A stretch of 64,000 bases of DNA, from the IMG/VR virus record IMGVR_UViG_3300025759_009745; one strand, given 5' to 3'. Source of the stretch: an uncultured virus (IMG/VR IMGVR_UViG_3300025759_009745) (Duplodnaviria > Heunggongvirae > Uroviricota > Caudoviricetes). Shown piece after piece: positions 1 through 21,476 of the stretch (position 1 is its first letter; each line of letters starts with the position of its first letter). The position numbers and the translations under genes were made by a program. A model generated the notes under the pieces. The model ran no database searches, was not told the DNA's origin, and saw nothing but the letters and a program-made list of their open reading frames with translations.

Positions 1-2
1 CG

Positions 3-3189: not shown

Positions 3190-3197
3190 GAAATATT

Positions 3198-3626
3198 ATG
3201 ACTAAACTACAAATATTGACTTCGCCCTCTCATCCAGTAGTAGGGTTTGATTACATTAATTTACAACCTACTGAGCAGTTAGATTCTAAACTTTCAAGTT
3301 ACTCAGATAATCAATGTGAGCTAATTCTCGCTGCGGAACTAATAGATCAGGTAGAGAGTGAAAACATAAACGAAATCTTATCAAAAATATGTTCAAAACT
3401 TAGACTAGGAGGAAAATTAGTCGTAGGAGGCACAGACTTAAATCTTTTTTGCAAAAGTGTTAATAACGATCTAATAAACGAAAAAAGTGCATCTCATCAT
3501 GTGGGCGCCTGTAAATCTATGTTAACTATCTCTAGCGTAGAAAAATTATTGGCAGGTCTAGGATTACAATTAGAATACTCTAGAATAAATGGAACAACAT
3601 ATGAAGTCTCAGGAATTAGAAGGTGA
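3198..3626 (+). CDS. Methyltransferase-like protein, apparently degenerate
   Basis: CELILAAELID...ILSKICSKLRLGGKLVV resembles methyltransferase motifs II/III; no GxG motif I. Confidence 0.45.
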   Translation: MTKLQILTSPSHPVVGFDYINLQPTEQLDSKLSSYSDNQCELILAAELIDQVESENINEILSKICSKLRLGGKLVVGGTDLNLFCKSVNNDLINEKSASHHVGACKSMLTISSVEKLLAGLGLQLEYSRINGTTYEVSGIRR

Positions 3627-5132: not shown

Positions 5133-5946
5133 CAGCAATGAGCCAATATATCTTAACAATGGTATAAACAATTTAAACAACAAATTTGTTAGTGCCGTAT
5201 GGTCTAACAATCAACAAAGCGTATTTGACACTTTTGACAGATACCAACCTAATATTTTAGTGTGTCATGCTGGATTAATTACAAACGACCTCGTAAAGTA
5301 CTTGTCTTTAAACAAAGAAAAAGACATCAAGTTGATTGTAAATATTTCGGGCTTAAATTCTAATCTTAAAGAGATAGAAGATAAGTTTGAACAAATGAAT
5401 ATAAAGCCATTGTTTATGTACTCTAATGAGTATTCATCCTTAGAAACCAAAAAACCTGAGAAAAATAAATTTGTTAGACTTTTACCGGCTGCAAATATAG
5501 ATGAAATTGACTTAAATGGACCTAAATACAAGATAGACACTGCCATATTAGCTGTAGAAAACTCAGAAAAACTTAATAAAGTATGTGGTGAAAAAACTGT
5601 CTACCACAAAATAAAAATAGGCAATGAGCCAGATCCAAATTTTGACTTTCATGTTAATTGTAGTACTATGTTCCCGCTTTATAATAACTATAAAAGCCTA
5701 ATACTTGTCGGAAAAGTCAAAGATGTTTGCGGTCAAATATTTTTCGACAGCTTGCTAAAAAGTCAAAACATGTCTCTAAAGATCGAAGATGAAGAAAATT
5801 TTCCCAAGTTTTTAGAAGAAGTTTTTGACGAACAGGAAGTTGATGATGAAAATGTATTAAAAATACTAAGAGAGCAGATAAGATCCAATCATACTTCAAA
5901 ACAAAGGGTCGAACAATTCATAAAAGAGATAGAGGCTTGTTTATGA
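5098..5946 (+). CDS. Hypothetical protein, possible divergent GT-B/CgeB-like glycosyltransferase
   Basis: MRILI start, YQPNILV, C-terminal IRSNHTSKQRVEQF like the CgeB-type HT..xR end; context. Confidence 0.4.
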   Translation: MRILIQNYSTINSNEPIYLNNGINNLNNKFVSAVWSNNQQSVFDTFDRYQPNILVCHAGLITNDLVKYLSLNKEKDIKLIVNISGLNSNLKEIEDKFEQMNIKPLFMYSNEYSSLETKKPEKNKFVRLLPAANIDEIDLNGPKYKIDTAILAVENSEKLNKVCGEKTVYHKIKIGNEPDPNFDFHVNCSTMFPLYNNYKSLILVGKVKDVCGQIFFDSLLKSQNMSLKIEDEENFPKFLEEVFDEQEVDDENVLKILREQIRSNHTSKQRVEQFIKEIEACL

Positions 5947-6653
5947 AAATTCTAGTTCAATTTCCAACATACGGTCGCGCCGATAAGTTTCTTAATGTTT
6001 TTGAACAATACATAGAAACTAGTAGTGGAAAGCATGATATATTCTTCAATATTAATTGCGATCAATCTGACATGACTATGATAGACCCTTATGTTGGCAG
6101 CCAAATCACTAAATTAATCACGAAAAACCGCTGGGTAATGGGTGCTGTAAACTTCGATTATGATACTAATAAAATTAGTGCTATTAATAATCACATCGAA
6201 GGTAAAGATTTTGATATTGTAGTTTGTGCTAGTGATGACATGGTTCCAAAGGCTTGGGGTTGGGACAATGAAATAGCTATTGCTATGAATCAATATTTTC
6301 CAGATTTAGACGGTTGCGTACACTTTGACGACGGGAACACAAATGGCGAACTTATTACATTTTCTATTCTTGGCCGTGTGCTGTACCAAAACTTTGGATA
6401 CATATATCACCCAGATTACAAAAGTTTGTACTGTGATGACGAATTCACGCAACAAGTAAAAAACATGAAGAAAGAGCAATACATAAACAAAAAAATTATT
6501 TCTCATGAGCATTGGAGTATAGAGGGTTCAGAGAACCATAATAAAGTAGACGTAGCTGTTCAAAAAACTCTTTATTACTCTGGTAGAGATAAAATGGTTT
6601 TTGAAAAAAGAAAAGAACTAGGATTCCCAAAACATAGAATAACAAACGATTAG
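5943..6653 (+). CDS. Glycosyltransferase family 2-like
   Basis: ILVQFPTYGR, ISAIN, DIVVCASDDM, YCDDEFT, IISHEH; ATG at 5943 overlaps upstream stop (ATGA). Confidence 0.8.
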   Translation: MKILVQFPTYGRADKFLNVFEQYIETSSGKHDIFFNINCDQSDMTMIDPYVGSQITKLITKNRWVMGAVNFDYDTNKISAINNHIEGKDFDIVVCASDDMVPKAWGWDNEIAIAMNQYFPDLDGCVHFDDGNTNGELITFSILGRVLYQNFGYIYHPDYKSLYCDDEFTQQVKNMKKEQYINKKIISHEHWSIEGSENHNKVDVAVQKTLYYSGRDKMVFEKRKELGFPKHRITND

Positions 6654-6661
6654 GAGAAAAG

Positions 6662-7327
6662 ATGGAAATATTAAGTCAACTACCTAACCTAATGGGACAT
6701 ATTGCTAATCAGGGTGTTTCATTATCAATAAAAGGTTGTATTCATATAGGTGCGCACGAAGGACAAGAATACCCCCTGTACGAAGCTTTTGGAATAGAAA
6801 ACTTGCTTTTCTATGAAGCATTACCAGACAACTTTAAAAAACTAGAAGAAAAACTCAAAGAATATAGCTTTAATTCACATAAAAATATAATCGTTGATGC
6901 CAGAAATGTCGCACTTGGAAATATAAATGGAACTGTAGAGATGCACCTAGAAGATAGAGGTTTGTCTTCTTCTGTTTTAAAGCCCAAAGTTCACCTATGG
7001 CAGTACCCAGGAATCAAGTTTGAAGAAAAAGAAACAGTTAAAATAACAAGACTGGACGATGAAGAATTTGACAGAGGGAAATATAACTTTATTAATATAG
7101 ACGTACAGGGATATGAATTAGAGGTTCTGAGAGGGGCAGAAGAAACGCTAAAACATGTAGACTTAATACTTGCAGAAGTAAACAAACAAGAAATGTACGA
7201 GGGTTGCGCCATGATTGATGAAATGGATGAATTTTTAGAAGAAAGAAATTTTCATAGGATTGCGACCTATTGGCAGCAAGATTATGGATCTTGGGGTGAT
7301 GCACTCTATTTAAAGGTGAATAAATGA
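6662..7327 (+). CDS. FkbM family methyltransferase
   Basis: IHIGAHEGQE, FYEALP, SSSVL, RLDD, FINIDVQGYELEVLRGA, WGDALY. Confidence 0.92.
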   Translation: MEILSQLPNLMGHIANQGVSLSIKGCIHIGAHEGQEYPLYEAFGIENLLFYEALPDNFKKLEEKLKEYSFNSHKNIIVDARNVALGNINGTVEMHLEDRGLSSSVLKPKVHLWQYPGIKFEEKETVKITRLDDEEFDRGKYNFINIDVQGYELEVLRGAEETLKHVDLILAEVNKQEMYEGCAMIDEMDEFLEERNFHRIATYWQQDYGSWGDALYLKVNK

Positions 7328-7932
7328 GATTATATACAACTTTTACCCCCTCGCATAAAGTTTTATATGAAAACTATTTTCTAAAAACTTTGCCTAATGA
7401 GTTTGATCTACACGTAGTAGAAGATTCAGAACAGTCATGCCCAACCGGATCGTTCTACCAAGAGGGGTGGGACAAAACTTGCTACAAGAAAGTAGAACTA
7501 TTCATAAAAGCTTGTGAAGAAAGTATGGGAGAACACTTTTTTTACTGCGATGTTGATGTGCAGTTTTTTGGCGATATAACCAAGCAGCTTCTGTCAGAAC
7601 TTGAAGATTTTGATATAGCCTGTCAAGACGATATAACCACGTTCAGTTCAGGTGTTTACATTTGCAAGGCAAATGAGACTACACTTAAAATGTTCCAAAC
7701 AATGAAAGAAAAGTACAACAAAGAAGATCAAACAACCTTAAACGATCAGATACACATGTGTAAACATAAAAAACTATCACATAAATTTTTCACTTTTGGT
7801 CATATTGTACCTAGACCCTGGAATGGTGAATTTTTTAAAGTACCAAAGGGCATATTGGTGCATCACGCAAACTGGGTCGTAGGCATAGAAAACAAAATGA
7901 GAATTATGGATTATGTTAGAGCAAACATTTGA
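7324..7932 (+). CDS. Nucleotide-diphospho-sugar transferase (GT77-like)
   Basis: FFYCDVDVQF (DxD), DIACQDD, SSGVY, EDQTTLN, VHHANW..GIENK. Confidence 0.8.
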   Translation: MRLYTTFTPSHKVLYENYFLKTLPNEFDLHVVEDSEQSCPTGSFYQEGWDKTCYKKVELFIKACEESMGEHFFYCDVDVQFFGDITKQLLSELEDFDIACQDDITTFSSGVYICKANETTLKMFQTMKEKYNKEDQTTLNDQIHMCKHKKLSHKFFTFGHIVPRPWNGEFFKVPKGILVHHANWVVGIENKMRIMDYVRANI

Positions 7933-8749
7933 AAAATATAGACCTTCGCCCTGTTATCCTGTATATCCACCTTATCATACGGGATTGTACTTAGAAGATT
8001 ATTTTTACGACTGGTACTATAAAAATAATATAGAGACGCAAAGAATTTTAATTCCCGTAAGCTGGACTACTTGTTATATTGAAAATAAAGACTCTGGACT
8101 ACAAGGGGTTTTGGATAACTTAGATGAATCAAAAAAGTATTTTACTGTATGTCAATTTGACGATGGTATAAAGCATCGACTACCCAAAGATACGATTCAA
8201 TTTAATGCGGGTGGAAATAGCGGCGGAATTCCAATACCTTTGATTTGTTCTAAGGTTCCACTAAGAGACATAGAAAATTTTAAATCAGAAAAAACAAAAC
8301 TATGTTCATTTGTTGGCTCGATAACGCATAGTATTAGAACGCAAATGTGTAGAGAGTTTGCAGATAAAGATAATTGTGAATTATTTGTAAAGCAGTGGAA
8401 CCCATCGGTAAAAGAGAATGAGTACCAAACATACCTATCTTCTGCCCTAGCGAGCAAATTTTTATTATGCCCAAGGGGTTATGGCTTAAATTCGTTCAGG
8501 CTGTACGAAGCGTTCCAGCTTGGTTGTGTGCCTGTTGTTATATCTGATGAAAACTTCCTTCCTTGGTCAGATGAGCTAAATTGGAATGAGTTTTCTGTTA
8601 TCACAAATACATGTGAAAACTTATACTTTAAGCTTGAAAATATCAGCGACACAGACTATAATAAATTGTTAGAGGTTGGGCAAAGACTTTTCCAAGATTA
8701 TTTTTGCCTTGATGGATTATGCAAACAAATAAAAAAGAGAGTGAAATGA
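7913..8749 (+). CDS. Exostosin family (GT47-like) glycosyltransferase
   Basis: CSFVGSITHSIR, SKFLLCPRGYGLNSFRLYEAFQLGCVPVVISD..LPWSDELNW. Confidence 0.88.
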   Translation: MLEQTFEKYRPSPCYPVYPPYHTGLYLEDYFYDWYYKNNIETQRILIPVSWTTCYIENKDSGLQGVLDNLDESKKYFTVCQFDDGIKHRLPKDTIQFNAGGNSGGIPIPLICSKVPLRDIENFKSEKTKLCSFVGSITHSIRTQMCREFADKDNCELFVKQWNPSVKENEYQTYLSSALASKFLLCPRGYGLNSFRLYEAFQLGCVPVVISDENFLPWSDELNWNEFSVITNTCENLYFKLENISDTDYNKLLEVGQRLFQDYFCLDGLCKQIKKRVK

Positions 8750-8802
8750 TAAAAAATATTTATGGAAAACTCAATAGACCTAATAGAGTGGTATTAAAAT
8801 GA
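8746..8802 (+). CDS. 18-aa mini-ORF MIKNIYGKLNRPNRVVLK bridging two glycosyltransferase genes
   Basis: ATGA overlaps with the upstream stop (8746-8749) and the downstream start (8799-8802); not in the supplied ORF track. Confidence 0.4.
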   Translation: MIKNIYGKLNRPNRVVLK

Positions 8803-9542
8803 AATATTTATTAGTAATAGCTAACTACAAGGATTATAGGCAAGAATTTTTTGATAATCATATATCACCCAGAAATAAAGAGTATTGTAAAAAGCACAAT
8901 TTTGAATACATAGAGCTAAAAGATGACTTGAAGCCAATAAGGGGCAAGTTGGGTTGGATAAAAGCATTTAAAGTGTGTCACATGCTTAATAACGAACTCA
9001 AAGAGAATGACATACTTACCTGCTTGGATGCAGATATGGCTATACATAAGATTGATTTCGACTACACGACTAATAAATCATTCTCTTATTCAATAGACTC
9101 TGGAAATACTCATTGTATGGGGTCTTATTCTGTAAAAGTAAACGACTGGACAAAGAATCTATTTAATTTAATTACCTGTGAAGAAAGATATAAAAAATTA
9201 AATAAACCTTCTCTCCATCCAGCTTTTAATTCTTTTGATAGTTTTTGGGAAAGTCATTACGACCAAGCCTCATGGTATTCACTGGCTGGAATTGTAAGGC
9301 ACTCCTGGGTTCCATTCTTCAATTTACCAAACTCTGGTTGGCATACAGACAAAAATGAGGACACGGTTTTTTGCTTAAAAGAACTGTACGATAATGTAGA
9401 GATTCTGCCAACAAAGTGGAACGTAACAGAAATGCCAGGAGAATCTGACTGTCATTTTAATATCAACCCAGTAGAGAGAAAAGATGTTATTATAAGACAC
9501 TTTGCCGGTCAACAAAAATGGAGAGAAGAATGGTTAAACTAA
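8799..9542 (+). CDS. GT34-like (galactosyl/xylosyltransferase-like) GT-A protein
   Basis: NKEYCKKHNFEY, WIK, TCLDADMAI (DxD), YDQA, WNV, IRHFAG. Confidence 0.7.
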   Translation: MKYLLVIANYKDYRQEFFDNHISPRNKEYCKKHNFEYIELKDDLKPIRGKLGWIKAFKVCHMLNNELKENDILTCLDADMAIHKIDFDYTTNKSFSYSIDSGNTHCMGSYSVKVNDWTKNLFNLITCEERYKKLNKPSLHPAFNSFDSFWESHYDQASWYSLAGIVRHSWVPFFNLPNSGWHTDKNEDTVFCLKELYDNVEILPTKWNVTEMPGESDCHFNINPVERKDVIIRHFAGQQKWREEWLN

Positions 9543-10168
9543 AAACTTTTTGTTTACATCACACCGGAGCGCCAAAGAGAAAGGAAAAGCTACTACCAGT
9601 TTTTGATAGGCTAGAAATTGATGTCGAGTGGGTAGAGAAGTTTCACCCATCAGAAATTGATACTTCTAAACTAAATTTGCAACACGATTTAAACATGGGA
9701 GAAATATCACTATACCTAAAACACCAATATTGCTATCAACAGCAAAAAGAGCATAAATATGAAAACATTCTAGTTTTTGAGGATGACATCATTCTACCAG
9801 AATGTACGGCTGGTGTTTTTGACGCATTTATTGACAACATTATTAAAGAGCTTGACTCTATTGAGGGAGACTTAGTTTTTATTGGTGAATGCTGCAACAT
9901 TAAGCCTAAAAAAATACAGCCGGGACAATATGTTTATTATCATCCTTCGTATCGCTCAAGATGCACTCACTGCTACTTATCTAACTATAGATGTGTAGAT
10001 GTTATTACAGAAGAACTAGAAAGTATAACCAACGCGATGGATTGGAGATTTAATGAAATTATTGAGAAAAGAAAACTAAAATCATGTTATAGCCATCCAA
10101 GTTTTCTCCAATCAACAGAAAGCCAACAAGAACCATCACTGCTGAGAAACGAACTATGGAAAAAATAA
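9518..10168 (+). CDS. Glycosyltransferase family 25-like
   Basis: GEISLYLKH, ILVFEDDI, RCTHCYL, AMDW. Confidence 0.8.
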   Translation: MERRMVKLKTFCLHHTGAPKRKEKLLPVFDRLEIDVEWVEKFHPSEIDTSKLNLQHDLNMGEISLYLKHQYCYQQQKEHKYENILVFEDDIILPECTAGVFDAFIDNIIKELDSIEGDLVFIGECCNIKPKKIQPGQYVYYHPSYRSRCTHCYLSNYRCVDVITEELESITNAMDWRFNEIIEKRKLKSCYSHPSFLQSTESQQEPSLLRNELWKK

Positions 10169-11052
10169 AATTAGGTTTTACTGACATGTGGGGTTATGCT
10201 CAGTATGACTTCAATCCCTTGGATAATTATTTTACAGATCTATTTTCTCTAGACTACAGGGTACAAATAGATAACGAGAACCCAGATATACTATTATATT
10301 CTGTATTCGGCAAAAATCATAAAAAATACAGTTGTAAAAAGCTATTCATCTGCGGAGAAAACCTAAAGCACCAAAAGGGAGATATTGAGCATTATAACAA
10401 TAGCGATATTAACCTGTCTCAATACGACGAAGAAGAAAAAGATTTGTTCTTTCCTCTCTGGGTTCTTAGTGTAAACTGGTTTAACAAGCCACAACCAAGA
10501 CCGCTTCCTAGTAATCCTACTTATACGCTGTCAATAGATCAAATACAAAATAATAGAGAAAGATTTTTATCTGAAAGAAAGTTTTGCTCTTTTGTTAGCA
10601 ATAGAGAATACAAAAATAGAGTAGAAGTATTTAATGTTCTATCTAAAGTAGAAAGAATAGATAGCCTTGGGTCGTTGTTGAATAATGTGGGGGGAAGTCT
10701 AGGCGGCTCTCAGCAGGATAAAATAGAAAAAATGAAAGAGTATAAATTCAACATCGCATTCGAGAATAGTTATCATGATGGCTATATAACAGAAAAGATA
10801 TTAGAACCTTTTGGTGCGGGCTGTATACCTCTTTACTCAGGAGGAAGTAAAGTGAAAAAATACTTTAATAAGGATAGCTTTGTTTACAGAGAGGACTATA
10901 ATAGTATAGAAGAATACGTGAACAAAATTGTATCAATCCATAGCGACTCGCATCTTTATCAAAAAATGATCTTAGAAAAACCCATGTTAGATCAGTGTTT
11001 TGTAGATTTTGAACCAAAAACCATACTCAAGAGAATAATGAAAAAATTATGA
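10156..11052 (+). CDS. Alpha-1,3/1,4-fucosyltransferase (GT10)
   Basis: NPDILLYSVFG, GEN, RKFCSFVSN, YKFNIAFENSYHDGYITEKI..PFGAGCIPLY (GT10 signature). Confidence 0.92.
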   Translation: MEKIKLGFTDMWGYAQYDFNPLDNYFTDLFSLDYRVQIDNENPDILLYSVFGKNHKKYSCKKLFICGENLKHQKGDIEHYNNSDINLSQYDEEEKDLFFPLWVLSVNWFNKPQPRPLPSNPTYTLSIDQIQNNRERFLSERKFCSFVSNREYKNRVEVFNVLSKVERIDSLGSLLNNVGGSLGGSQQDKIEKMKEYKFNIAFENSYHDGYITEKILEPFGAGCIPLYSGGSKVKKYFNKDSFVYREDYNSIEEYVNKIVSIHSDSHLYQKMILEKPMLDQCFVDFEPKTILKRIMKKL

Positions 11053-11630
11053 GTTATTTTGTTTCTGAAAAATTTCCAAACGGCGTAAGTTTAATTCATA
11101 TACCCAAGACGGGAGGCTCTACGCTTGTAGAGCTTTTTAAAGATAGGCAAGGTTATTTCAATATAGGTCATCGCTCTGCCTATATGATTATGAAAGGTAT
11201 TGATAAACCGCCAAATTCTCCACAGAATTATAGTGAATTATTTAATAAATCCCACAAGATATCCGTGGTTAGAAATCCATATGAAAGAATTAGATCTTGG
11301 TTCTATTTTATGAAAAAGTATGAAGCCTTTATCCATAAGTATGTAAAAAACGGATTTCATCAATTCCTTCTTGATATAGATGCTGGCCTTAATCCAGAGG
11401 TTGCAGCTTGGACTCAAACCAAATACCTATATGTGAATGAAAAGCTAGCTGTTGACCAAATAATATCATTTGAAAAATTAAAAGAAGAATTCGAGAAAAC
11501 ATTTGAAGAAGAACTAATAGGCCATAAATGGAAAACAAATTCAGCAAATTACGAAATAGAAGAAAAAAGCAAAGAACTAATTAGAAAAATTTACAAAGAA
11601 GATTTTGTCAATTTCAAATACGAGGAATAA
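11049..11630 (+). CDS. Sulfotransferase family 2 protein
   Basis: IHIPKTGGST (5'-PSB), VRNPYERIRSW (3'-PB), IYKEDFVNFKY. Confidence 0.88.
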   Translation: MSYFVSEKFPNGVSLIHIPKTGGSTLVELFKDRQGYFNIGHRSAYMIMKGIDKPPNSPQNYSELFNKSHKISVVRNPYERIRSWFYFMKKYEAFIHKYVKNGFHQFLLDIDAGLNPEVAAWTQTKYLYVNEKLAVDQIISFEKLKEEFEKTFEEELIGHKWKTNSANYEIEEKSKELIRKIYKEDFVNFKYEE

Positions 11631-11632
11631 TA

Positions 11633-12292
11633 ATGGATGTTTACGAAAAATATAAGAATTACTACCCAGACGGCGTTGTAAGGCCACAGCCGGGAGATTT
11701 TGTTGAAAGATACTTTGGCGGTAAAGTCGGAGGTTTTTTCGTTGACGTTGGCGCATATGATGGTATAACTTGGTCGAACAGTATTAGTCTAGATGAGAAT
11801 TTTCATTGGAAGGGCATATGCATAGAACCGATCCCGTCTGTGTATGATTTACTTGTAAAAAATAGACCAAATTCCGAATGTATAAACGCTGCTGTTTCAG
11901 ACTGGAAAGAAGTTTCTGGTAAGATAAAGTTCTGGCACGTTACTGGATATGCAGAAATGCTTAGTGGTATAGAAGAAGAATATCACGAAGATCATATAGA
12001 AAGAATTAAGGGTGATATAGAGAAAATGGGAGGCTCTGTAAGCAAGATAGAAGTTGATAGCTTGAAACTTAGCGACATCATTAAAGAACCCGTTGACTAC
12101 TTATCTATTGACGTAGAAGGGGCAGAACTCACTGTTTTAAAAAGTCTAAACCTATCAAAAAACAGACCCAAGCTAATAAGTTTAGAAGATAATGGTTACA
12201 CTGATGACCCTATGGTATTTTTAGCGCAAAATAATTACAAGTTTTTAACAAGAGTATGTGGAGATATGTTTTATGAAGATAGCCTTTTATAG
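11633..12292 (+). CDS. FkbM family methyltransferase
   Basis: GFFVDVGAYDGITWSNS, WKGICIEP, VDYLSIDVEGAELTVL. Confidence 0.92.
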   Translation: MDVYEKYKNYYPDGVVRPQPGDFVERYFGGKVGGFFVDVGAYDGITWSNSISLDENFHWKGICIEPIPSVYDLLVKNRPNSECINAAVSDWKEVSGKIKFWHVTGYAEMLSGIEEEYHEDHIERIKGDIEKMGGSVSKIEVDSLKLSDIIKEPVDYLSIDVEGAELTVLKSLNLSKNRPKLISLEDNGYTDDPMVFLAQNNYKFLTRVCGDMFYEDSLL

Positions 12293-13235
12293 TACCCATT
12301 TATGCTTACATGGAACAACTGTAGCTGTTTATGATTACGCAAATTATAATGAGTCTATACTAGGTAATGAGTCTTTTGTTTTCTACTTAGAAGACGAACC
12401 AAGAAATAACGAAACAACAAAACAGAAATTTAAAAATAGATTTGGTAACAGGGTTATATCTGGTAGATCAATAGAGGATATAGATAGTAAATTAAAAGAC
12501 TTAAACATTGATGCTATTTACGTAATAAAGACTGGAAGAAAAGATGATGGTGTGATCTTTAAAAACTGCCCAATGCTTATAAACGCTGTAGGACTAGTTC
12601 CTCCGTCAGAATCACATGGAAAGGTTTTTGCATACAATTCTTATTGGGTAAGTCAGCACTGTTCTAATGGTTCTTTGCCCGCTGTTCCTCATATGATAGA
12701 CTTGCCAGAAGTAGAAGACGACCTAAGAAATGAATTAAATATACCGTCAAGCGCAATAGTTTTTGGTAGGAATGGGGGTACTTATAGTTGGAACATAAAT
12801 TTCGTAGAAAAATCAATATCAGAGGCGTTAAATCAAAGAGATGAAATTTTCTTTGTGTTCCAGAACACCCCAAGATTTTTAGAACATGAAAGAATTATAA
12901 ACATTCCCCCTACCGCCGACATGGAATACAAAGTTAAATTCATAAATACATGCGATGCCATGATACACGCCAGAAAAGAAGGAGAAAGTTTTGGTCTAAC
13001 GTGCGGAGAATTTTCAGTAAAAAATAAACCAGTTATTACGTGGGACGGTTCGGCAGAAAAGAATCACACTTTCATCTTGGGAGAAAAAGGTATATACTAT
13101 AAAGATCAGTCAGATTTGACTAAAATCTTTTTATCATTTAAACCGAATCCAAATAAAGACTGGAATGCTTACAAAGACTATAGTCCAGAAAAAATCATGA
13201 AAATATTTAACGAGGTGTATCTACAGAATGTATAA
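12273..13235 (+). CDS. Glycosyltransferase family 4-like
   Basis: MKIAFY start after RBS GGAG, GTTVAVYDYA, FINTCDAMIHARKEGESFGLTCGEF. Confidence 0.8.
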   Translation: MKIAFYSTHLCLHGTTVAVYDYANYNESILGNESFVFYLEDEPRNNETTKQKFKNRFGNRVISGRSIEDIDSKLKDLNIDAIYVIKTGRKDDGVIFKNCPMLINAVGLVPPSESHGKVFAYNSYWVSQHCSNGSLPAVPHMIDLPEVEDDLRNELNIPSSAIVFGRNGGTYSWNINFVEKSISEALNQRDEIFFVFQNTPRFLEHERIINIPPTADMEYKVKFINTCDAMIHARKEGESFGLTCGEFSVKNKPVITWDGSAEKNHTFILGEKGIYYKDQSDLTKIFLSFKPNPNKDWNAYKDYSPEKIMKIFNEVYLQNV

Positions 13236-13923
13236 TTTAATATTGACTGCGGCTGGTAAATATCAAAGGTTTCGTAGATTTAGCTACGAAATTCCAAAGT
13301 ATCTATTACCAGTTAAAAACAGAACCATGCTACATTATGTTTTAAAGGGTTTTTTTAGTAATAGGCACGCGAAGGTCACATTTGTTGGTAATAAACAAGA
13401 TATCAACTTCAACGGCGCTGTGAATGCAATACTTTCTGAACTTTGTAATAACTATCAGACATTGTGGGTAGATGACACCTCTGGTCAAGCAGAGACTTTG
13501 ATTAAGGCAACGGAAAACATGCATGGACCTTTTATTGTTCATAATGTTGATACAATTTTACTTGATAGGTATTGGCCCCCAGTCTTTCCGTATAATGATT
13601 GTGGTGTTGATGTTTTCAAATCTTCTAATAGAAATTATAGCTATGTTGATGTTGACAACAAGGGTTTTGTCTCTACAATAAAAGAAAAAACTGTTATTTC
13701 TGATAAAGCTTCCTCTGGTTGTTACCTCTTTAAAGACAGTAGTTTTAGAGATTACTTTGATGAATCGACTTTATACATTAGTCAAATAATAAACAAGATG
13801 ATTGAACACGGAAGAATTGTCGAAGCAGGCAGGGTTTATAACGAAAAAGACACAATCGTTATGGGAACGCCAGAAGAATACCTAATGAACATGGACTCAG
13901 ACAAACTAACAGAGGAAAGATGA
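13228..13923 (+). CDS. Sugar/cyclitol-phosphate nucleotidyltransferase
   Basis: ILTAAGKYQRF....PKYLLP, TSGQAET, IVHNVDT, IKEKTVISDKASSGCYLF, MGTPEEY. Confidence 0.85.
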   Translation: MYNLILTAAGKYQRFRRFSYEIPKYLLPVKNRTMLHYVLKGFFSNRHAKVTFVGNKQDINFNGAVNAILSELCNNYQTLWVDDTSGQAETLIKATENMHGPFIVHNVDTILLDRYWPPVFPYNDCGVDVFKSSNRNYSYVDVDNKGFVSTIKEKTVISDKASSGCYLFKDSSFRDYFDESTLYISQIINKMIEHGRIVEAGRVYNEKDTIVMGTPEEYLMNMDSDKLTEER

Positions 13924-14843
13924 AAGAAATTACCTTAAAGGGGGGATCTTTAGCTAGAACTTCAATAGTAGAACGTAATAATAAAAAAGTAGTTAGAAAG
14001 AGAATCTCTACACAAGAAGAAAGAGAGTATGGATACTGTAGGTGGTATTCACAGCTAAAAAAAATGCAGAGACTAGAAAATATGTTTACTTGGTACGGTA
14101 GACATAGCGCTTTGTTTCCATCAATATTAGACTATGGTTATGACGAAAGAGAAGAAATAGCCTACATGGATATTGAATACAGAGAAGATGCAATAAACTG
14201 CTATGAATATTTGATTAAACCTGACATGACAAAAAGCAAAGCACAAAATTTGCTTGAGAACATATTGGATGCTTGCGGTTGGCTACACTCACATATAGTC
14301 TCGCAAGTAAAACCAGAAAATGCCATGTCTCTGTATTTTCAAGAAGAAATAGTAGAGAAAATAAACGAAGCTAAATTGTTTGTAAATCCTGATATTCTTG
14401 ACAAATTAAGAGTGAAAGCAGATAAGGTATGGAAATCAGTCTACTACTCAGAATGCTTGACTCATGGTAACATGACTTTAGAAAATATTTTATATCTACA
14501 AGACTCTAATGAGGTAATGTTTATAGACCTTTATGAAGAAAATATTTTTGATTGCAAGCAAGCAGATTACTCACAGCTACTACAGTCTAGCAATTCTAAT
14601 TACGAATTAATGGTAGACGGCTTAAATTGCCAACCCACCCCAAAAGGTTTGATATACTTTAATGATTATTTACTATCTGCAATTGAAAGGGACTTAGATG
14701 TAGCAGACAGGGCGTTTGTAAAGTTTTTAGAGTGTTCTCAATTTTATAGAATGTTACCATTTAAGGTTAAGTCAAAAACAAATATAAAACCTTTTTTAGA
14801 TACAGCTAATAATCTCGCTAAGGAGTTTTTAGATGAATATTGA
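13920..14843 (+). CDS. Aminoglycoside/choline-kinase-fold phosphotransferase (small-molecule kinase)
   Basis: LKGGSLA Gly loop, VRKRI, MDIEY, THGNMTLENIL (Brenner-like motif, N at the usual D), MFIDLY. Confidence 0.75.
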   Translation: MKEITLKGGSLARTSIVERNNKKVVRKRISTQEEREYGYCRWYSQLKKMQRLENMFTWYGRHSALFPSILDYGYDEREEIAYMDIEYREDAINCYEYLIKPDMTKSKAQNLLENILDACGWLHSHIVSQVKPENAMSLYFQEEIVEKINEAKLFVNPDILDKLRVKADKVWKSVYYSECLTHGNMTLENILYLQDSNEVMFIDLYEENIFDCKQADYSQLLQSSNSNYELMVDGLNCQPTPKGLIYFNDYLLSAIERDLDVADRAFVKFLECSQFYRMLPFKVKSKTNIKPFLDTANNLAKEFLDEY

Positions 14844-15933
14844 CTACAATTCTAATCAATCAGTAAAAATGACAATGTGTATGTGTGAGAATATCTTTGA
14901 CACTAAAGATATTTTATCATACGGAGATTCTGACAGAAGGTTGGTTTTTGTAGATAAATTGTTTTATCAGTGTGGCGACTGGAAGAACAAGATTAACGAT
15001 TACTTCAATAATAATAATATAGAGGCTACAATAGTTCAGGTAGAATGCAAAGAAAAAACCAAGGACTTAGAAAGTCTCATGTTTATATTGGGGCACATGG
15101 AAAGATTTAATCTATTAAGAAGAAGTGAGCCTGTTATTGCTATTGGTGGTGGAGTATTAATGGATATGGTAGGATTTGCCTCTAGTATCTTTCGCCGTGG
15201 AGTGCCTTATATCAAAGTTCCTACCACTTTGCTGGGAATGATAGACGCAGGACTGGGAGCAAAAACTTCAATAAATCACTTTGACAGAAGAAACCGTTTA
15301 GGATCTTATTTTCCGGCCATATTAACCTGTATAGATCGTCAGTTTTTAAAAACTCTGCCAACGAAAGAGATAACGGTGGCTATAGGTGAATTAATAAAAA
15401 TAGCAGTAATAAAAAATGCGCATCTTTTTCACATGTTTGAAATTGATTTAGATCCTTTAATTAAGTCAAAATTTAACTGTAAATGCTCGTCGTATATTAT
15501 AAAAACGGCTATAACCTCGATGATGGAAGAACTAGAGCCAAATTTATGGGAAAAAGATCTAGAAAGAGTTGTAGATTTTGGTCACACATTCAGCCCTATC
15601 CCAGAGATGAAATCTTTGCTAGATAATAATGTTCCATCTCTGCATCACGGAGAGGCTGTAGCCTTAGATGTTCTTTTAAGTTCCAAAATCGCCGTGGGTA
15701 GAGGTCTATTAACGGTAGAAGATTACAATAAAATATTAAACGTCACTAAAAGGAGCGGTTTACAAGTGTGCCATCCATACTTTAAAGATCCTTATATACT
15801 ATGGGATTCTTTGCTGGATGCAACTAGACATAGGAATGGAAATCAAAATCTACCAGTCCCAATAAAGATTGGAGCTAGTACGTTCTTACAAGATGTAACT
15901 ATAGAAGAAATAAAAAGGGTAACAAAGTGGTAG
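14833..15933 (+). CDS. Sedoheptulose 7-phosphate cyclase, 2-epi-5-epi-valiolone synthase (EEVS) type (ValA/AcbC-like)
   Basis: DHQS fold: GGGVLMDMVGF, RRGVPYIKVPTTLLGMIDAG, GELIK, HGEAV. EEVS-type MMEELEPNLWE and RVVDFGHTFS motifs. Confidence 0.88.
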   Translation: MNIDYNSNQSVKMTMCMCENIFDTKDILSYGDSDRRLVFVDKLFYQCGDWKNKINDYFNNNNIEATIVQVECKEKTKDLESLMFILGHMERFNLLRRSEPVIAIGGGVLMDMVGFASSIFRRGVPYIKVPTTLLGMIDAGLGAKTSINHFDRRNRLGSYFPAILTCIDRQFLKTLPTKEITVAIGELIKIAVIKNAHLFHMFEIDLDPLIKSKFNCKCSSYIIKTAITSMMEELEPNLWEKDLERVVDFGHTFSPIPEMKSLLDNNVPSLHHGEAVALDVLLSSKIAVGRGLLTVEDYNKILNVTKRSGLQVCHPYFKDPYILWDSLLDATRHRNGNQNLPVPIKIGASTFLQDVTIEEIKRVTKW

Positions 15934-16559
15934 TAATAAGCGGAGCAAGTAGCGGAGTAGGATATGCGCTAGCAAAAATTATTAGCAAAGAAAAAGATGT
16001 GATTGGACTAGGACGTAGAGAAAAAATTGATCTACCAATACAATATCATTCTATTGACTACTGCGATAGCTACAGCTTTGATTTAATTAATCCAGAAGAA
16101 TTAGATGCTATCGTTCATTGTTCAGCACAATTCAAGATGGCGAAACTTGAAGATACCACCGGTGAAGAAATCAACGATATGATTAGTACAAATTTAACAA
16201 GCCTAATTAATTTTGTAAAACACTTTCAGCCAAGAATGAAAAAGAAAGGTAAAATCATACTTGTTTCATCTGTGTCTGGGCTTAGAGGGCAAAAACACCA
16301 GACTGTTTATTCAGCAACAAAACACGCAATTCAAGGATTTGCAGATTCATTAAGACAAGAAGTGTCTCAGTCTGTTACAACTATTTGCCCAGGAGGAATT
16401 AGTACACCTCTATGGAATAAGAAAAATCCTTATCCGGGTGAAGTTTCTAGATTACTTACCCCAGATGATGTTGCTAATATAATAAATGACGTTGTTAACT
16501 GTAAAATAAATGGAGTGTTTAAGAATATAACTGTTTACCCAGAAAACGAAAGCCATTAA
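15927..16559 (+). CDS. Short-chain dehydrogenase/reductase (SDR)
   Basis: ISGASSGVG, GKIILVSS, YSATK, ICPGGIST. Confidence 0.9.
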   Translation: MVVISGASSGVGYALAKIISKEKDVIGLGRREKIDLPIQYHSIDYCDSYSFDLINPEELDAIVHCSAQFKMAKLEDTTGEEINDMISTNLTSLINFVKHFQPRMKKKGKIILVSSVSGLRGQKHQTVYSATKHAIQGFADSLRQEVSQSVTTICPGGISTPLWNKKNPYPGEVSRLLTPDDVANIINDVVNCKINGVFKNITVYPENESH

Positions 16560-16561
16560 TA

Positions 16562-17284
16562 ATGAAAATCGCCGTCTCTATATATGGTCAACCAAGGAAT
16601 TTTGAAACAGGGTATGAGTATTTATCAAAAAGCTTAAAGGAGTATGACGTAGACTACTTTATCCACTCTTGGTTTGACCAATCAGAGGTGGGTAAAAACT
16701 TAATAATATACTCAGACAAGAAGGGTGTAGTCTCTGATGCCATTAAAGAGGGAACAAGGGAAAAAATACTTAAACTTTATAGGCCGAAAGATTATATCAT
16801 AGAAAAGCAAATTGAGTTCCCTGAAATCCCAGAGCTATTGAATAATCATGGAAGACCACCAGACGCAACAATTCCAACAAATATATTTCAGTCTATGCTT
16901 TATTCAAGAAAGACTAGCATTGATTTAATGTATCATTATCCAGTAAATTATGATATTTGCATAGCTACAAGAACAGACGTTGCTACAACAAAAAATTTTA
17001 TACCGGATATAATAGACGATAGTATCTATAGCGGATATTGCCGTGGTGATATTTGGCATAAGGAGGCTTTGACTTGCGGTATTATTGCTTCCACTCAGGA
17101 AAACATACATCACTACGGAAAACTTTACGACGAATACATGAACATATATGATTCTGGAGTTTCATACTGTGCCCACAGAATGGCTTTTGAGCATATGAAA
17201 AAACTAGAAAAGAGATTTAAGTTTATACTAAAAGATGATTGGTATTGGGTTAGGAAAAACGGTTTAGTGCCAGCTTTTTATTGA
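16562..17284 (+). CDS. Hypothetical protein, putative glycosyltransferase of polysaccharide loci
   Basis: MKIAVSIYGQPR, DYFIHSW, LYRPK, SMLYS, YDICIATRTD pattern; context. Confidence 0.5.
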   Translation: MKIAVSIYGQPRNFETGYEYLSKSLKEYDVDYFIHSWFDQSEVGKNLIIYSDKKGVVSDAIKEGTREKILKLYRPKDYIIEKQIEFPEIPELLNNHGRPPDATIPTNIFQSMLYSRKTSIDLMYHYPVNYDICIATRTDVATTKNFIPDIIDDSIYSGYCRGDIWHKEALTCGIIASTQENIHHYGKLYDEYMNIYDSGVSYCAHRMAFEHMKKLEKRFKFILKDDWYWVRKNGLVPAFY

Positions 17285-17291
17285 GGGGAAA

Positions 17292-18083
17292 ATGAACGAA
17301 CTAATTAAAAACGCAATAAATGATAGTAAGCCTAAAGCTTTTGGTAAGATGGGAAACGTAGAAGCTTCACATATTTTAACATACTTGAACAACACCCCGT
17401 CATTGATAGGTCAACAGTTATTTGTCAATGCTGGTATATATGCTGACTCATTAGACACTTTTGTTAGTTGGTGTCGTCATTACTTAAAGTCAGTCAAAAA
17501 CCTAGACTCTATATTACAGTGGTGCAATGAAGATAAATTAGTTCTATCTCAAATGGGGTATAAAGGTGACGTTCAAAATTCTTTTGAGGGCATAGAACCA
17601 TTCGTATTAGGTGAAGAAGGCTGGCATTATCAACTGAAAGACAAGACTGTGCTTTGTGTTTCACCTTTTCCAGATACAGTTCAAACTCAAGTAAGAAAAT
17701 TTAATAAAATATGGAACGGGGCAGAGATAGGCAATTTAATTACTGTTAAATCTCCATACTCAGAAGCTCTTACTGGAGAAAAACCAAAACCTTGGATAGA
17801 CAAACTTGACGATATGATTAGTCAAATTAATCATCTTGACTTTGACTTCGCGACAGTTGGTTGTGGAGGATTCTCCTTAATAATCTGTGACCATATAAAG
17901 AAATTAGGAAAACCGTGCGTTCACCTCGGAGGCGGTAATCAAATACTTTACGGAATTAGAGGTAAAAGATGGGACGAAGGATTTAAACACCATGAATGGT
18001 ATGGGACAAAAGAGTGGATAAGACCACTGCCCCATGAAACTCCACCTAGGAAATTTTATGTAGAAGGAGGATGTTATTGGTAA
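17292..18083 (+). CDS. Hypothetical protein of polysaccharide loci (possible GT-D-like)
   Basis: VLCVSPF, DFDFATVGCGG, CVHLGGGNQILYGIRGKRWD, VEGGCYW. Confidence 0.5.
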   Translation: MNELIKNAINDSKPKAFGKMGNVEASHILTYLNNTPSLIGQQLFVNAGIYADSLDTFVSWCRHYLKSVKNLDSILQWCNEDKLVLSQMGYKGDVQNSFEGIEPFVLGEEGWHYQLKDKTVLCVSPFPDTVQTQVRKFNKIWNGAEIGNLITVKSPYSEALTGEKPKPWIDKLDDMISQINHLDFDFATVGCGGFSLIICDHIKKLGKPCVHLGGGNQILYGIRGKRWDEGFKHHEWYGTKEWIRPLPHETPPRKFYVEGGCYW

Positions 18084-18099
18084 TTTTTTGAAAAAATAT

Positions 18100-18128
18100 T
18101 TGCCAAACTGTATTTCCTAAACTATAAT
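18100..18128 (+). promoter_or_regulatory. Sigma70-type promoter upstream of GDP-fucose synthase
   Basis: TTGCCA (18100-18105), 17-bp spacer, TATAAT (18123-18128), then RBS AAGGAGG. Confidence 0.75.
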
Positions 18129-18146
18129 AAGTAAGGAGGACTATAT

Positions 18147-19136
18147 ATGAAAATACTAATAACTGGCGGGTCTGGATTTCTTGGTAAGAATATTGTAAAA
18201 CATTTTAAACCAAAAAGAGATGAGGGTTGTATACACATTGATGATGACAGAGCGCATTATAGTGTAATGGCGTTATCTAGCAAATGTTATGATCTACGTA
18301 GCAGCTATGCCTGCAAAAAAGCAATAGAGTATTACAGGCCGGATGTAATTGTTCATGCCGCCGGTAGTGTAGGTGGAATCTTAGCAAATCAAGAAAATCC
18401 CGGCAAGTTTATGTATGAAAATCTTGCAATGGGAATGAACATGATTGAAGCAACTCGTTATTACCGTGACAAATACGCTCCACATGTAAAATTTATCATG
18501 CTAGGAACCGTCTGCGCATACCCCAAGTTTACACCCGTCCCGTTTAAGGAGTCTGAACTATGGAATGGCTACCCAGAAGAAACTAATGCTCCATACGGTA
18601 TCGCTAAAAAAACTTTGATGAAATTAGGCGAAACATATCATGAGCAATACGGGATGGATATTATTAATCTAATTCCTGTTAATATGTACGGTCCACATGA
18701 CCATTTTAATCTTACAAGTAGTCATGTCATACCCGCACTCATTTTGAAGTTCTACAACGCCATGAAGAACGGAGAAGAAAGAGTAAATATCTGGGGTACA
18801 GGTAATGCGTCAAGAGAATTTTTATATGCCGAAGATTGCGCTAGGGCAATTCATAGTGCTGCTTGGGCACAAAATGTTGGGCCAGAACCAATTAATATTG
18901 GTACGGGAAAAGAAATTACAATTAACAATCTAGTATATGAAATTGGCGACCTGATGGGCTACGAGGGCATTATAAATTGGGAGCTTGACAAACCTGACGG
19001 TCAACCCAGAAGATGCCTTGATACAACGAGAGCAAAAGAGAAACTAAATTTTACAGCTAAAACAGACCTACGAACAGGACTAAAACATACAATAGATTGG
19101 TTCTTAGACGATAATAACTGGGAGAAAGATAAATGA
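18147..19136 (+). CDS. fcl: GDP-L-fucose synthase
   Basis: ITGGSGFLG, HAAGSVGGILAN, GTVCAYPK, NAPYGIAKK, PVNMYGPHD, SHVIPALI, WGTGNASREFLY, PDGQPRRCLD. Confidence 0.95.
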   Translation: MKILITGGSGFLGKNIVKHFKPKRDEGCIHIDDDRAHYSVMALSSKCYDLRSSYACKKAIEYYRPDVIVHAAGSVGGILANQENPGKFMYENLAMGMNMIEATRYYRDKYAPHVKFIMLGTVCAYPKFTPVPFKESELWNGYPEETNAPYGIAKKTLMKLGETYHEQYGMDIINLIPVNMYGPHDHFNLTSSHVIPALILKFYNAMKNGEERVNIWGTGNASREFLYAEDCARAIHSAAWAQNVGPEPINIGTGKEITINNLVYEIGDLMGYEGIINWELDKPDGQPRRCLDTTRAKEKLNFTAKTDLRTGLKHTIDWFLDDNNWEKDK

Positions 19137-21448: not shown

Positions 21449-21472
21449 AGGGGCAGCACACCGCTACCCCTT
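21448..21472 (-). terminator. Hairpin, probable terminator for the - strand structural operon
   Basis: - strand AAGGGGUAGC-GGUGU-GCUGCCCCUU then AUUCAUUUU; fully paired only on this strand (U-G wobble). Confidence 0.55.
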
Positions 21473-21476
21473 GGTT

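Follow-up and report, generated by a model that had tools for sequence, protein, structure and literature searches.

The 64,000-nucleotide stretch of DNA analysed here (the window), which comes from an uncultured freshwater tailed phage, carries four overlapping genes, for a nucleotidyltransferase, a kinase-like protein, a sugar phosphate cyclase and an SDR, that we read, with a probability of about 0.55, as one cassette whose predicted activities would supply an activated carbocyclic donor to the glycan island of the phage. What the analysis shows in favour of this reading is the folds and families of the products, where the cyclase is placed, how closely the genes are coupled and how well the set is conserved. 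In the proposed route, the cyclase would convert a sugar phosphate, most probably the sedoheptulose 7-phosphate of the host, to a C7 keto-cyclitol (2-epi-5-epi-valiolone or its 5-epimer), the SDR would reduce the ketone to a saturated cyclitol, the APH-fold protein would give the cyclitol phosphate, the nucleotidyltransferase would turn the latter into an NDP-cyclitol, and an island transferase, with the adjacent GT-A-fold protein as the first candidate, would attach it to a virion glycan or to one at the surface of the infected cell. We infer the substrate and the nucleotide, the order of reduction and phosphorylation, the phosphorylation site, and both the transfer step and its acceptor. The literature searched contained no description of a viral pathway of this kind, in agreement with the original prediction, which knew of no described phage carbasugar pathway.

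Cassette layout and setting

The ORF map of the window places the cassette at 13228-16559, with all four genes on the plus strand and with overlaps of 4, 11 and 7 nt in the order nucleotidyltransferase, kinase-like protein, cyclase and SDR (Table 1); both this layout and the four family or fold assignments made originally hold. The surrounding island encodes, by Pfam, two GT4-type proteins, a MobA-like nucleotidyltransferase, two FkbM proteins, Nucleotid_trans, GT47, GT25, GT10, Sulfotransfer_2, a weak GT-D-like match and a GDP-fucose-synthase-like epimerase, while the 28 plus-strand ORFs scanned gave no family match to Wzx, Wzy, an initiating phosphoglycosyltransferase, LicD or TagF. The Pfam scan also matched no dehydratase family in the cassette or the island, as the original prediction had stated. 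The contigs of the runs X10 and X11, neither of which was flagged as a possible source, cover the cassette and its two flanking genes at 99+% identity and bridge three of the five gene junctions there (nucleotidyltransferase/kinase-like, kinase-like/cyclase and SDR/GT-A), and none of their joints skips the cassette.

Table 1. Positions of the cassette genes, their flanks and the glycan island in the window
Feature	Position	Strand	Remarks
GT-B/GT4-like flank	12273..13235 (long ORF from 12258)	+	outside the conserved cassette; 8-nt overlap with the nucleotidyltransferase gene
Nucleotidyltransferase (cassette gene 1)	13228..13923	+	231 aa; PF00483
APH/choline-kinase-fold protein, HGN instead of HGD (cassette gene 2)	13920..14843	+	307 aa; AlphaFold model and relatives
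Sedoheptulose-7-phosphate-cyclase-type sugar phosphate cyclase, EEVS/EVS side (cassette gene 3)	14833..15933	+	366 aa; PF01761 and PF24621
SDR (cassette gene 4)	15927..16559	+	210 aa; PF00106
GT-A-fold glycosyltransferase-like protein, candidate user of the cassette product	16562..17284	+	starts 2 nt past the SDR stop
One-strand glycan island holding the cassette	1..19136 (~20 kb)	+	Pfam families of its ORFs

Identity and placement of the cyclase

The cyclase matches PF01761 at 1.7e-32 and PF24621 at 2.3e-17, and the residues GGGV, K144, H251 and H272 are invariant, with E186 nearly so, in 19 sequences; the metal ligands among them are assigned by presumed homology, and on this evidence the protein has the two-domain architecture of DHQS, including its sites for NAD+ and metal. 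Its best solved match is ValA (4p53, 254 bits over 336 residues, 26-361 of 366), a score that DDGS likewise reaches against ValA, followed by 5tpr, which we take to be DDGS in spite of its PDB title of 3-dehydroquinate synthase (187 bits), DHQS structures (at most 128 bits) and DOIS (73 bits). Both motifs named in the original prediction, MMEELEPNLWE and RVVDFGH, are present in the translation and align with MLEELQPNLWE and RLVDFGH of ValA, the corresponding sites of DDGS being MLELEVPNLHE and RVIAYGH. By score and by the ValA-type residues in PNLWE and VDFGH, the cyclase is nearer to ValA than to either of DDGS and DOIS.

The original prediction had identified the cyclase as EEVS rather than AroB or DDGS, and had called for a phylogeny. 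Identity with the shikimate-pathway AroB is ruled out by scores well below the cut-offs of the AroB models (TIGR01357, 166 against 305 bits; NF004852, 167 against 333 bits) and by a careful 57-row tree, in which the AroB paralogs of five genomes separate at 100/100. DDGS is rejected on the lower score, the other motif residues and the position of the verified DDGS ortholog clade (L245, 633 bits to 5tpr) outside an 85/90 group that unites the ValA ortholog (L046, 743 bits to 4p53), the clade of Ca. Paraburkholderia kirkii and all cassette cyclases. The ValA side is therefore upheld; however, in this tree, whose references are the ValA and DDGS orthologs and the AroB paralogs, the cassette cyclases form a clade of their own (100/99) apart from that of ValA. 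The enzyme may accordingly be either an EEVS or an EVS, and the stereochemistry of the product and the label 'valiol-type' are to that extent provisional.

The separate clade also bears on the possibility that the cyclase takes another sugar phosphate or forms another ring, of the EVS type or a C6 cyclitol, so that the pathway would be a carbocycle but not a valiolone one. The links of the cassette clade to the other EEVS-side clades have a bootstrap of only 43-58%, and a neighbouring clade holds Lentzea and Cystobacter/Archangium, presumably related to the sources from which EVS is known. The related cyclase EboD was, according to PMC12904256, mispredicted and later found to use mannose 6-phosphate. 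Given this case, the separate clade and the distance from ValA, the substrate and product of the cassette cyclase are insecure. Against another ring stand the ValA alignment, the ValA residues in both motifs that differ in DDGS, and the mere 73 bits to the hexose-phosphate cyclase DOIS, and we regard this alternative as improbable.

The SDR and the kinase-like protein

The SDR matches PF00106 at 4.2e-29, with SGASSGVG and YSATK in its translation. In 78 of 81 viral loci and 13 of the 20 genome cassette loci, it is the gene that follows the cyclase directly. Where it is missing, an aldo/keto reductase usually takes its place (five SDR-less loci), and since the SDR is thus swapped for a non-orthologous reductase, keto-reduction is probably a required step.

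The kinase-like ORF has no Pfam match of its own, while 19 relatives match Choline_kinase (8/19), APH (7/19) and Fructosamine kinase (5/19). Its AlphaFold model (pLDDT 91) points to a bilobal protein-kinase-like fold: the top Foldseek match is the fructosamine-3-kinase 3jr1 (2e-8, TM 0.60), followed by NahK, APH(3')-IIIa, PsiK, MTR kinase and LicA (4r7b, 4r77), all of them at probability 1.00 and TM 0.43-0.62. The protein-atlas neighbours are APH clusters, and the best PDB sequence matches are to the JAK2 pseudokinase domain. The residues K7-G-G-S10, K27, N189 and D203 are invariant in the 19 sequences; taking the spacing of APH(3')-IIIa as a guide, we assume them to be the Gly-rich loop, the Lys, the catalytic-loop Asn and the Mg-binding Asp, so that the ATP/Mg site appears to be kept. 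However, the catalytic Asp of HxDxxxxN is replaced: the window has H182-G-N184-M-T-L-E-N189, with Asn184 at this site, and Asn is found there in 18 of the 19 sequences (Asp only in L018) and in 74 of 78 viral copies. Accordingly, of the kinase originally predicted the APH/choline-kinase fold stands, but with Asn in nearly all members the word 'kinase' names a predicted fold rather than an activity.

Conservation of the four-gene set

The set was surveyed in the best 80 bacterial and archaeal cyclase loci and in 80 IMG/VR loci. All four genes occur in 63 of the 80 IMG/VR loci, 61 in the order nucleotidyltransferase-kinase-cyclase-SDR and two in the order kinase-cyclase-SDR-nucleotidyltransferase, and most of the loci without the full set end at contig ends; gene clustering over 81 viral loci recovered the cyclase in 81, the SDR in 78, the kinase in 77 and the nucleotidyltransferase in 71. 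Within the best 80 genome loci, a kinase homolog lies directly upstream of the cyclase in 20, the nucleotidyltransferase within 4 kb in 19, and the SDR directly downstream in 13, the source taxa being Fibrobacterota, Myxococcota, Polynucleobacter, Desulfobulbaceae, Balneolaceae, Ca. Actinomarina, Prochlorococcus and two archaea. The four-gene synteny, set beforehand as a check, proved to be highly conserved, among phages as well as in the glycan loci of bacteria. At 60 non-cassette cyclase loci, actinomycete ones included, no homologs of the cassette kinase or nucleotidyltransferase were present within 10 kb. In a 111-row tree all 25 cassette cyclases fall in one 46-row clade, so that this type of cyclase is tied to its partner genes. 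The remaining rows of the clade are the 20 closest metagenome proteins, compared as sequences alone, and L021, the sole locus there seen without the cassette.

Two of the five annotated bacterial loci are rich in glycosyltransferases, L012 with ManC, GT2, Wzz, GT9, Gmd and DegT and L028 with four GT2, GT1 and GT8, and two more have single glycosyltransferase genes; in the protein atlas, fused APH and NTP_transferase clusters occur in O-antigen-type proteins. This setting, that of the window itself and the GT-A gene adjoining in 55 of 81 viral loci count against a cassette that makes a soluble small molecule, such as a glycosidase inhibitor, a signal or a compatible solute comparable to streptol, kirkamide or the validamycin-type cyclitols. 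Nucleotide activation likewise implies transfer to an acceptor, and the tailoring genes of the actinomycete clusters were not seen beside the cassette. Such a product would be consistent with the characterised EEVS-type cyclase products treated in PMC12904256 and PMC9200736, which are all small molecules, and with an inositol-monophosphatase-family gene near the cassette in one bacterial locus (L009), but we consider it unlikely.

Flanking glycosyltransferases

Alignments with the relatives of the upstream flank, of which there are 1751 at E<=0.001 and many carry fused GT25, GT17, FkbM or GT10 domains, begin at residue 6-8 of the long ORF and make the ATG at 12273 the likely start. Its original assignment to GT4 is weakly supported, by an E-x7-E pair (E238, E246) invariant in 30 sequences, Glycos_transf_1 matches below threshold that lie within the region of homology for 3 of 15 relatives, and a profile match to the PBCV-1 GT4 enzyme B736L at E 0.0019. 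When 24 other cassette loci were compared, only L028 had a homolog of this flank near the cassette, at 26% identity.

The downstream ORF at 16562 has no Pfam match, and its model (pLDDT 94) gives GT-A matches (Foldseek E 6e-7, VIA Z 12.8 to 12.0), with the fold of the CTP:inositol-1-phosphate cytidylyltransferase 4jd0 as a distant one (Z 9.9), in keeping with the putative transferase of the original prediction. Beyond the four genes, the GT-A family is the only widely co-conserved one, and in phages only: 55 of the 81 viral loci with the cassette contain a member, usually as the gene just before the nucleotidyltransferase. The copy in the window belongs to another subclade, together with L087, whose island lacks the cassette. 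In bacteria there is no transferase that co-varies with the four genes, one weak GT-A family match having been obtained in 24 loci, and the Pfam matches of the 38 window ORFs scanned include no ValL/AcbS-type pseudo-glycosyltransferase, epimerase or dehydratase beside the cyclase.

The nucleotidyltransferase and the mode of transfer

The nucleotidyltransferase matches PF00483 at 26.8 bits (cut-off 21.2), and G10, R14, F15, P23, K24, D108 and E153-K154 are invariant in 16 sequences; by the family and by the GxGxR...PK and EK motifs it is predicted to be a sugar-1-phosphate nucleotidyltransferase. Its closest solved relative is the NDP-sugar pyrophosphorylase 4evw (1.9e-43), then RmlA (~1e-9). 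No named equivalog of known substrate and nucleotide was reached in NCBIfam, the scores being far under the cut-offs, e.g. 42 against 292 bits.

Because a dehydratase is absent, the donor would be saturated, without the allylic activation of GDP-valienol. A saturated cyclitol has neither a ring oxygen nor a double bond to stabilise C-O cleavage, and on this chemical argument of our own it would more plausibly be transferred as cyclitol-phosphate. The same four steps would then follow a CDP-alcohol logic, as in LicA/LicC for choline, TarI for ribitol and CTP:inositol-1-phosphate cytidylyltransferase, with a cyclitol linked by a phosphodiester and not pseudo-glycosidically. The pairing of an APH/choline-kinase-fold protein with a small nucleotidyltransferase is that of LicA and LicC, the structural matches include LicA, and the nucleotidyltransferase profile touches ribitol-5-P and MEP cytidylyltransferases (3f1c, 4jis and 6xhp; 1e-7 to 1e-3). 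However, its 16 members resemble sugar-1-phosphate enzymes oftener (Arch_glmU 15/16 and rmlA_long 8/16, all below curated cut-offs, against IspD 2/16 and ribitol-5-P cytidylyltransferase 3/16), the 28 island ORFs contain no match to a CDP-alcohol phosphatidyltransferase, as to LicD and TagF, and the gene with which the cassette is most frequently linked in phages encodes a protein of GT-A glycosyltransferase fold. The phosphodiester alternative is a rather doubtful one, if the strongest of those weighed here. No dedicated transferase was found, and the activated donor that we propose may pass on either the cyclitol or a cyclitol-phosphate.

Comparison with known pathways

In acarbose and validamycin biosynthesis, a reductase, a kinase and a nucleotidyltransferase lead to an NDP-cyclitol, and for acarbose PMC9200736 gives the cyclitol 1-kinase AcbU and the cyclitol-1-phosphate nucleotidyltransferase AcbR as established. 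The phage set resembles this GDP-valienol branch (AcbC/ValA, AcbM/ValC, AcbU, AcbL/AcbN, AcbR/ValB and AcbS/ValL) in having a cyclase of the same superfamily branch, with ValA as the best solved match, and, as predicted from the genes, the three activities towards an NDP-cyclitol. It differs in having four genes, without epimerase, dehydratase and phosphatase; in the clade of its cyclase; in a kinase of the APH/choline-kinase fold and a nucleotidyltransferase of the 4evw/RmlA kind, AcbR/ValB being of the glucose-1-phosphate adenylyltransferase kind (PMC9200736); and in its setting, since it lies in glycan islands of phages and of bacteria that are Gram-negative or planktonic rather than in an antibiotic cluster.

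In LicA/LicC, that is, choline kinase and CTP:phosphocholine cytidylyltransferase, and in salvage pairs of the AmgK/MurU type, a kinase of the APH/choline-kinase fold and a small GT-A-like nucleotidyltransferase together activate an alcohol or sugar that goes into a surface glycan. The cassette has a comparable pair, and the structural matches of its kinase-like protein include LicA as well as NahK, an anomeric kinase; unlike the known pairs, the cassette would make its own substrate by the cyclase and the reductase and has Asn at the catalytic Asp site. The CDP-inositol pathway is a precedent for a small nucleotidyltransferase activating a cyclitol phosphate, likened to the cassette enzyme by role and not by sequence, but it starts from C6 inositol made by MIPS and leads to solutes or lipids.

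Possible biological meaning

A broader proposal, which we offer tentatively and hold to be doubtful, is that a saturated C7 carbasugar is built into surface glycans by aquatic phages and, in planktonic bacteria and archaea, by loci of the O-antigen or capsule type. The route would be a minimal one of four enzymes, with a kinase-fold enzyme without the canonical Asp and with GT-A users acting by non-allylic pseudo-glycosyl transfer or cyclitol-phosphate donation. We know of no polysaccharide with this class of residue. The target glycan and the glycosidase-resistant coat of the original prediction are purely conjectural. If the proposal is true, the phage would remodel a virion or host-surface glycan into a form refractory to the glycosidases and receptor-binding proteins of competitors.

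Placement of the cyclase

The cassette cyclase carries both DHQS domains (Pfam) and scores only 166 bits against the AroB models, the cut-offs of which are 305 and 333. Against the solved structures it reaches 254 bits with ValA (4p53), 187 bits with 5tpr, which we take to be the DDGS of Anabaena (dehydroquinate synthase in the PDB title), at most 128 bits with the DHQSs and 73 bits with DOIS. The two cyclase motifs named in the original prediction do align with those of ValA, unlike those of 5tpr.

For the phylogeny, the locus L046 of Streptomyces hygroscopicus, with 743 bits to 4p53, was taken as the ValA ortholog and the locus L245, with 633 bits to 5tpr, as the DDGS ortholog; the kirkamide cyclase was represented by the loci of Candidatus Paraburkholderia kirkii, and AroB-level paralogs were taken from five genomes. 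The careful tree was built from 57 of 116 rows, picked to cover all clades, and a tree of 111 rows was a quick search; the weak partial matches L005 and L006 and the ORFs below 250 aa were excluded from the trees. In the 57-row tree AroB separates at 100/100. The DDGS clade (100/100) branches outside a larger group (85/90), to which all cassette cyclases belong together with the ValA ortholog and the kirkii clade. With four cyclases from cassette-free loci, the cassette cyclases make up a separate clade of 26 rows (100/99), the links of which to the other ValA-side clades have a bootstrap of only 43-58%. Since DDGS also scores 254 bits against ValA, the same as the window cyclase, the cassette cyclases are a third lineage, placed on the ValA side. 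Thus, the predicted position near ValA and apart from AroB and DDGS was recovered, but not as a ValA ortholog. The 16 closest metagenome relatives (P0001-P0016) are 59-68% identical, and a tblastn search of the GenBank phages gave no EEVS-type gene; the 15 records matched do not exceed 31% identity, an AroB-level likeness, and some of them are bacterial contamination.

Distribution of the cassette

The cassette is common, occurring in many IMG/VR stretches and in several phyla of bacteria and archaea, and the conservation of the four-gene synteny, named as a check in the original prediction, was found in cellular genomes and viruses alike. The profile scan with one genome per species matched at least 600 stretches, of which at least 579 encode a relative; among the best 80 loci, which were kept, a kinase homolog lies directly upstream of the cyclase in 20, the NTase within 4 kb in 19, and the SDR directly downstream in 13. 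Two gene orders exist, kinase-cyclase-SDR-NTase and NTase-kinase-cyclase-SDR. The cassette-bearing bacteria are Fibrobacterota, Myxococcota, Polynucleobacter, Desulfobulbaceae, Balneolaceae, Ca. Actinomarina, Prochlorococcus, a gammaproteobacterium and Holophagaceae, and two archaea carry it as well. The remaining 60 loci, mostly of actinomycetes but also of the leaf-symbiont group of Burkholderia and of various others, lack both the cassette type of kinase and that of NTase. Seven cassette loci are without the SDR, five of them having an aldo/keto reductase instead, one ending at the contig end and one having neither; the replacement was established by clustering and checked by Pfam in L074 and L009. 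Five bacterial cassette loci were annotated, of which L012 and L028 are clear glycan loci, L019 and L009 contain single glycosyltransferase genes, and L074, from a Prochlorococcus single-cell genome, encodes a sulfotransferase as well as a TPR protein, its Sulfotransfer_2 gene (L074:1338-2159) lying close to the cassette as in the window.

In IMG/VR, 111 stretches were matched and 109 encode a relative. Of the 80 loci kept, 61 have the order of the window (NTase-kinase-cyclase-SDR), two have kinase-cyclase-SDR-NTase, and 17 are short of one or two cassette genes, mostly at contig ends. Clustering over 81 loci recovered the cyclase in 81, the SDR in 78, the kinase in 77 and the NTase in 71. Some IMG/VR cassettes (16 loci, one cluster) hold a RuBisCO-like protein between NTase and kinase, for example L003:2122-3360 and L203:3916-5055; the window has no such gene. 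In 38 viral loci a 727-aa fusion of CTP_transf_like and Zeta_toxin/AAA_33 P-loop kinase domains (L228:8481-10664) lies downstream of the cassette; it may be a second activation enzyme.

Kinase-like protein, nucleotidyltransferase and SDR

The kinase-like protein has no Pfam match itself, and its 19 aligned relatives match Choline_kinase (8/19), APH (7/19) and Fructosamine kinase (5/19). Its model (pLDDT 91) resembles fructosamine-3-kinase, NahK, APH enzymes, MTR kinase, PsiK and LicA, and its Atlas neighbours are APH clusters, many of them phage-derived. The APH/choline-kinase fold of the original prediction is therefore upheld by the model and the family matches, but the replacement of the catalytic Asp of HxDxxxxN by Asn had been overlooked. 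The ATP/Mg features KGGS, K27, N189 and D203 are invariant, and the Asn is found in 18 of the 19 aligned sequences. Of 78 viral copies 74 carry it as well, and of the remainder three ORFs are truncated and one lacks the motif. The best PDB sequence matches of the profile are to the JAK2 pseudokinase domain, likewise HGN. With Asn for the catalytic Asp, the protein must either catalyse its reaction in an atypical way or have another activity.

The NTase passes the PF00483 threshold weakly, with the G-x-G-x-R, P-K, D and E-K positions all retained; among solved structures its profile matches the uncharacterised NDP-sugar pyrophosphorylase 4evw (1.9e-43) and RmlA (about 1e-9). In the SDR both the Gly-rich and the YxxxK motif are present, and it matches PF00106 at 4.2e-29.

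Gene layout and the glycan island

The predicted layout of four overlapping genes in 13228-16559 is borne out by the ORF coordinates and overlaps, all on the plus strand (Table). The surrounding one-strand block comprises 28 ORFs from position 1 to about 21.1 kb.

Table. Features of the cassette, the glycan island and the adjoining block
Feature	Position	Strand	Remark
NTase ORF	13228-13923	+	cassette gene 1; 4-nt overlap with next
Kinase-like ORF	13920-14843	+	cassette gene 2; 11-nt overlap with next
Cyclase ORF	14833-15933	+	cassette gene 3; 7-nt overlap with next
SDR ORF	15927-16559	+	cassette gene 4
GT4-like flank	12258 or 12273 to 13235	+	8-nt overlap with cassette NTase gene
GT-A-fold flank	16562-17284	+	starts 2 nt past SDR stop
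Two GT4-type transferases	in one-strand block	+	Pfam
MobA-like nucleotidyltransferase	4368-5132	+	Pfam; second NTase in the island of the cassette
Two FkbM methyltransferases	in one-strand block	+	Pfam
Nucleotid_trans, GT47, GT25, GT10 glycosyltransferase families	in one-strand block	+	Pfam
Sulfotransfer_2 sulfotransferase	11049-11630	+	Pfam; close to cassette
GT-D-like protein	in one-strand block	+	weak match
GDP-fucose-synthase-like epimerase and GT10 fucosyltransferase-like gene	18147-19136	+	epimerase: NF047922 263 bits, cut-off 500
HNH/homing-endonuclease-like ORF	19567-20355	+	phrog_559, 7e-13; at glycan-island edge
Convergent pair of strong terminator-like hairpins	21448-21500		between + island and - structural block
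Giant ORFs of 1492, 1769, 4101 and 2697 aa	22304-56399	-	PHROG matches for 2697-aa ORF only

With its second, MobA-like nucleotidyltransferase the island probably has at least two unusual donors to activate, and sulfation may affect its glycan or the cyclitol. The window shows no GDP-mannose dehydratase, and the families of flippase, polymerase, initiating phosphoglycosyltransferase, LicD and TagF gave no match in the one-strand block. Promoter-like sites (66 against 52.5 +/- 8.4 by chance) and terminator-like sites (13 against 8.1 +/- 3.2) are not clearly in excess, and none convincingly splits the cassette.

The 2697-aa minus-strand ORF is a tape measure protein (PHROG 28, 6.5e-27), and the same block holds a protein with a tail-fibre-like N-terminus. 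Thirteen of the 16 large ORFs of the window have no match in PHROGs, a 387-aa ORF has no protein match, and no DNA match was found for the structural half; hence, the window belongs to a tailed phage without a cultured relative. This phage is not T4-like. The stretch with the cassette is present in freshwater metagenomes, and none of the sequencing runs listed for it is of RNA. Contigs from two runs that carry no flag as a possible source span three of its five gene junctions, no contig joint skips the cassette, and the runs X20 and X21, of small share, yield short pieces only.

Flanking glycosyltransferase genes

The upstream gene (12273) belongs to a large family of 1751 relatives, often fused to GT25, GT17, FkbM or GT10 domains, with an invariant E-x7-E pair; its profile is also weakly linked to a GT4 enzyme of a chlorovirus, so that GT4-like is a reasonable label. 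It was dropped as a dedicated transferase because a homolog lies near the cassette in just 1/24 other loci.

The downstream gene (16562) has no Pfam match, and its model (pLDDT 94) has a GT-A fold with such a flat ranking of structural matches that no CAZy family can be named; the family profile gave nothing against PDB sequences (E > 0.6), the matches coming from the fold search alone. Its relatives occur in 55 of 81 viral cassette loci by HMM and in 58 by clustering, usually directly upstream of the NTase; the bacterial cassette loci have no further co-conserved gene beyond the cassette. In a 195-row tree of the GT-A family, 45 cassette-adjacent members fall into one clade with a single outsider (99*), and 16562 lies in another clade together with L087, a related phage island with four flanking genes 68%, 50%, 60% and 61% identical. 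As a user of the cassette product 16562 is a candidate, by adjacency and family-level association only. The cassette slot of L087 (4364-8004) is filled otherwise, by genes for a GT32-like protein and a MobA-like NTase and by three ORFs that match nothing in Pfam, so that the cassette behaves as a swappable donor-supply module. L087 also encodes a Shikimate_dh_N-domain protein (1125-1775).

Proposed pathway

The folds, the placement of the cyclase, the coupling of the genes and the co-inheritance of the cassette are demonstrated by these comparisons. In the pathway proposed, the cyclase would act on sedoheptulose 7-phosphate and the SDR would reduce the keto-cyclitol, a step supported by the non-orthologous replacement of the SDR by an aldo/keto reductase. 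The reduced cyclitol would then be phosphorylated and nucleotidylated, for which AcbU and AcbR of acarbose biosynthesis are a precedent (PMC9200736), and the activated cyclitol would be passed to a glycan. Because no match to a dehydratase family was obtained, a saturated donor is to be expected, which lends real weight to the alternative that it is used by the logic of CDP-alcohols and transferred as cyclitol-phosphate. However, the NTase members match sugar-1-phosphate models oftener than alcohol-phosphate cytidylyltransferases, all below the cut-offs, and the partner gene is of GT-A fold, both of which speak against this alternative.

Significance

C7 cyclitols are familiar as small-molecule inhibitors, sunscreens and signals, but no polysaccharide is, to our knowledge, known to contain them, none is known from a virus, and no description of a viral or polysaccharide C7-cyclitol pathway was found in the literature searched, including a 2026 cyclitol review. 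If carbasugars truly reach glycans by way of the cassette, microbial glycobiology would gain a new building block, chemoenzymatic work a short, portable NDP-carbasugar route, and phages a new means of altering surfaces.
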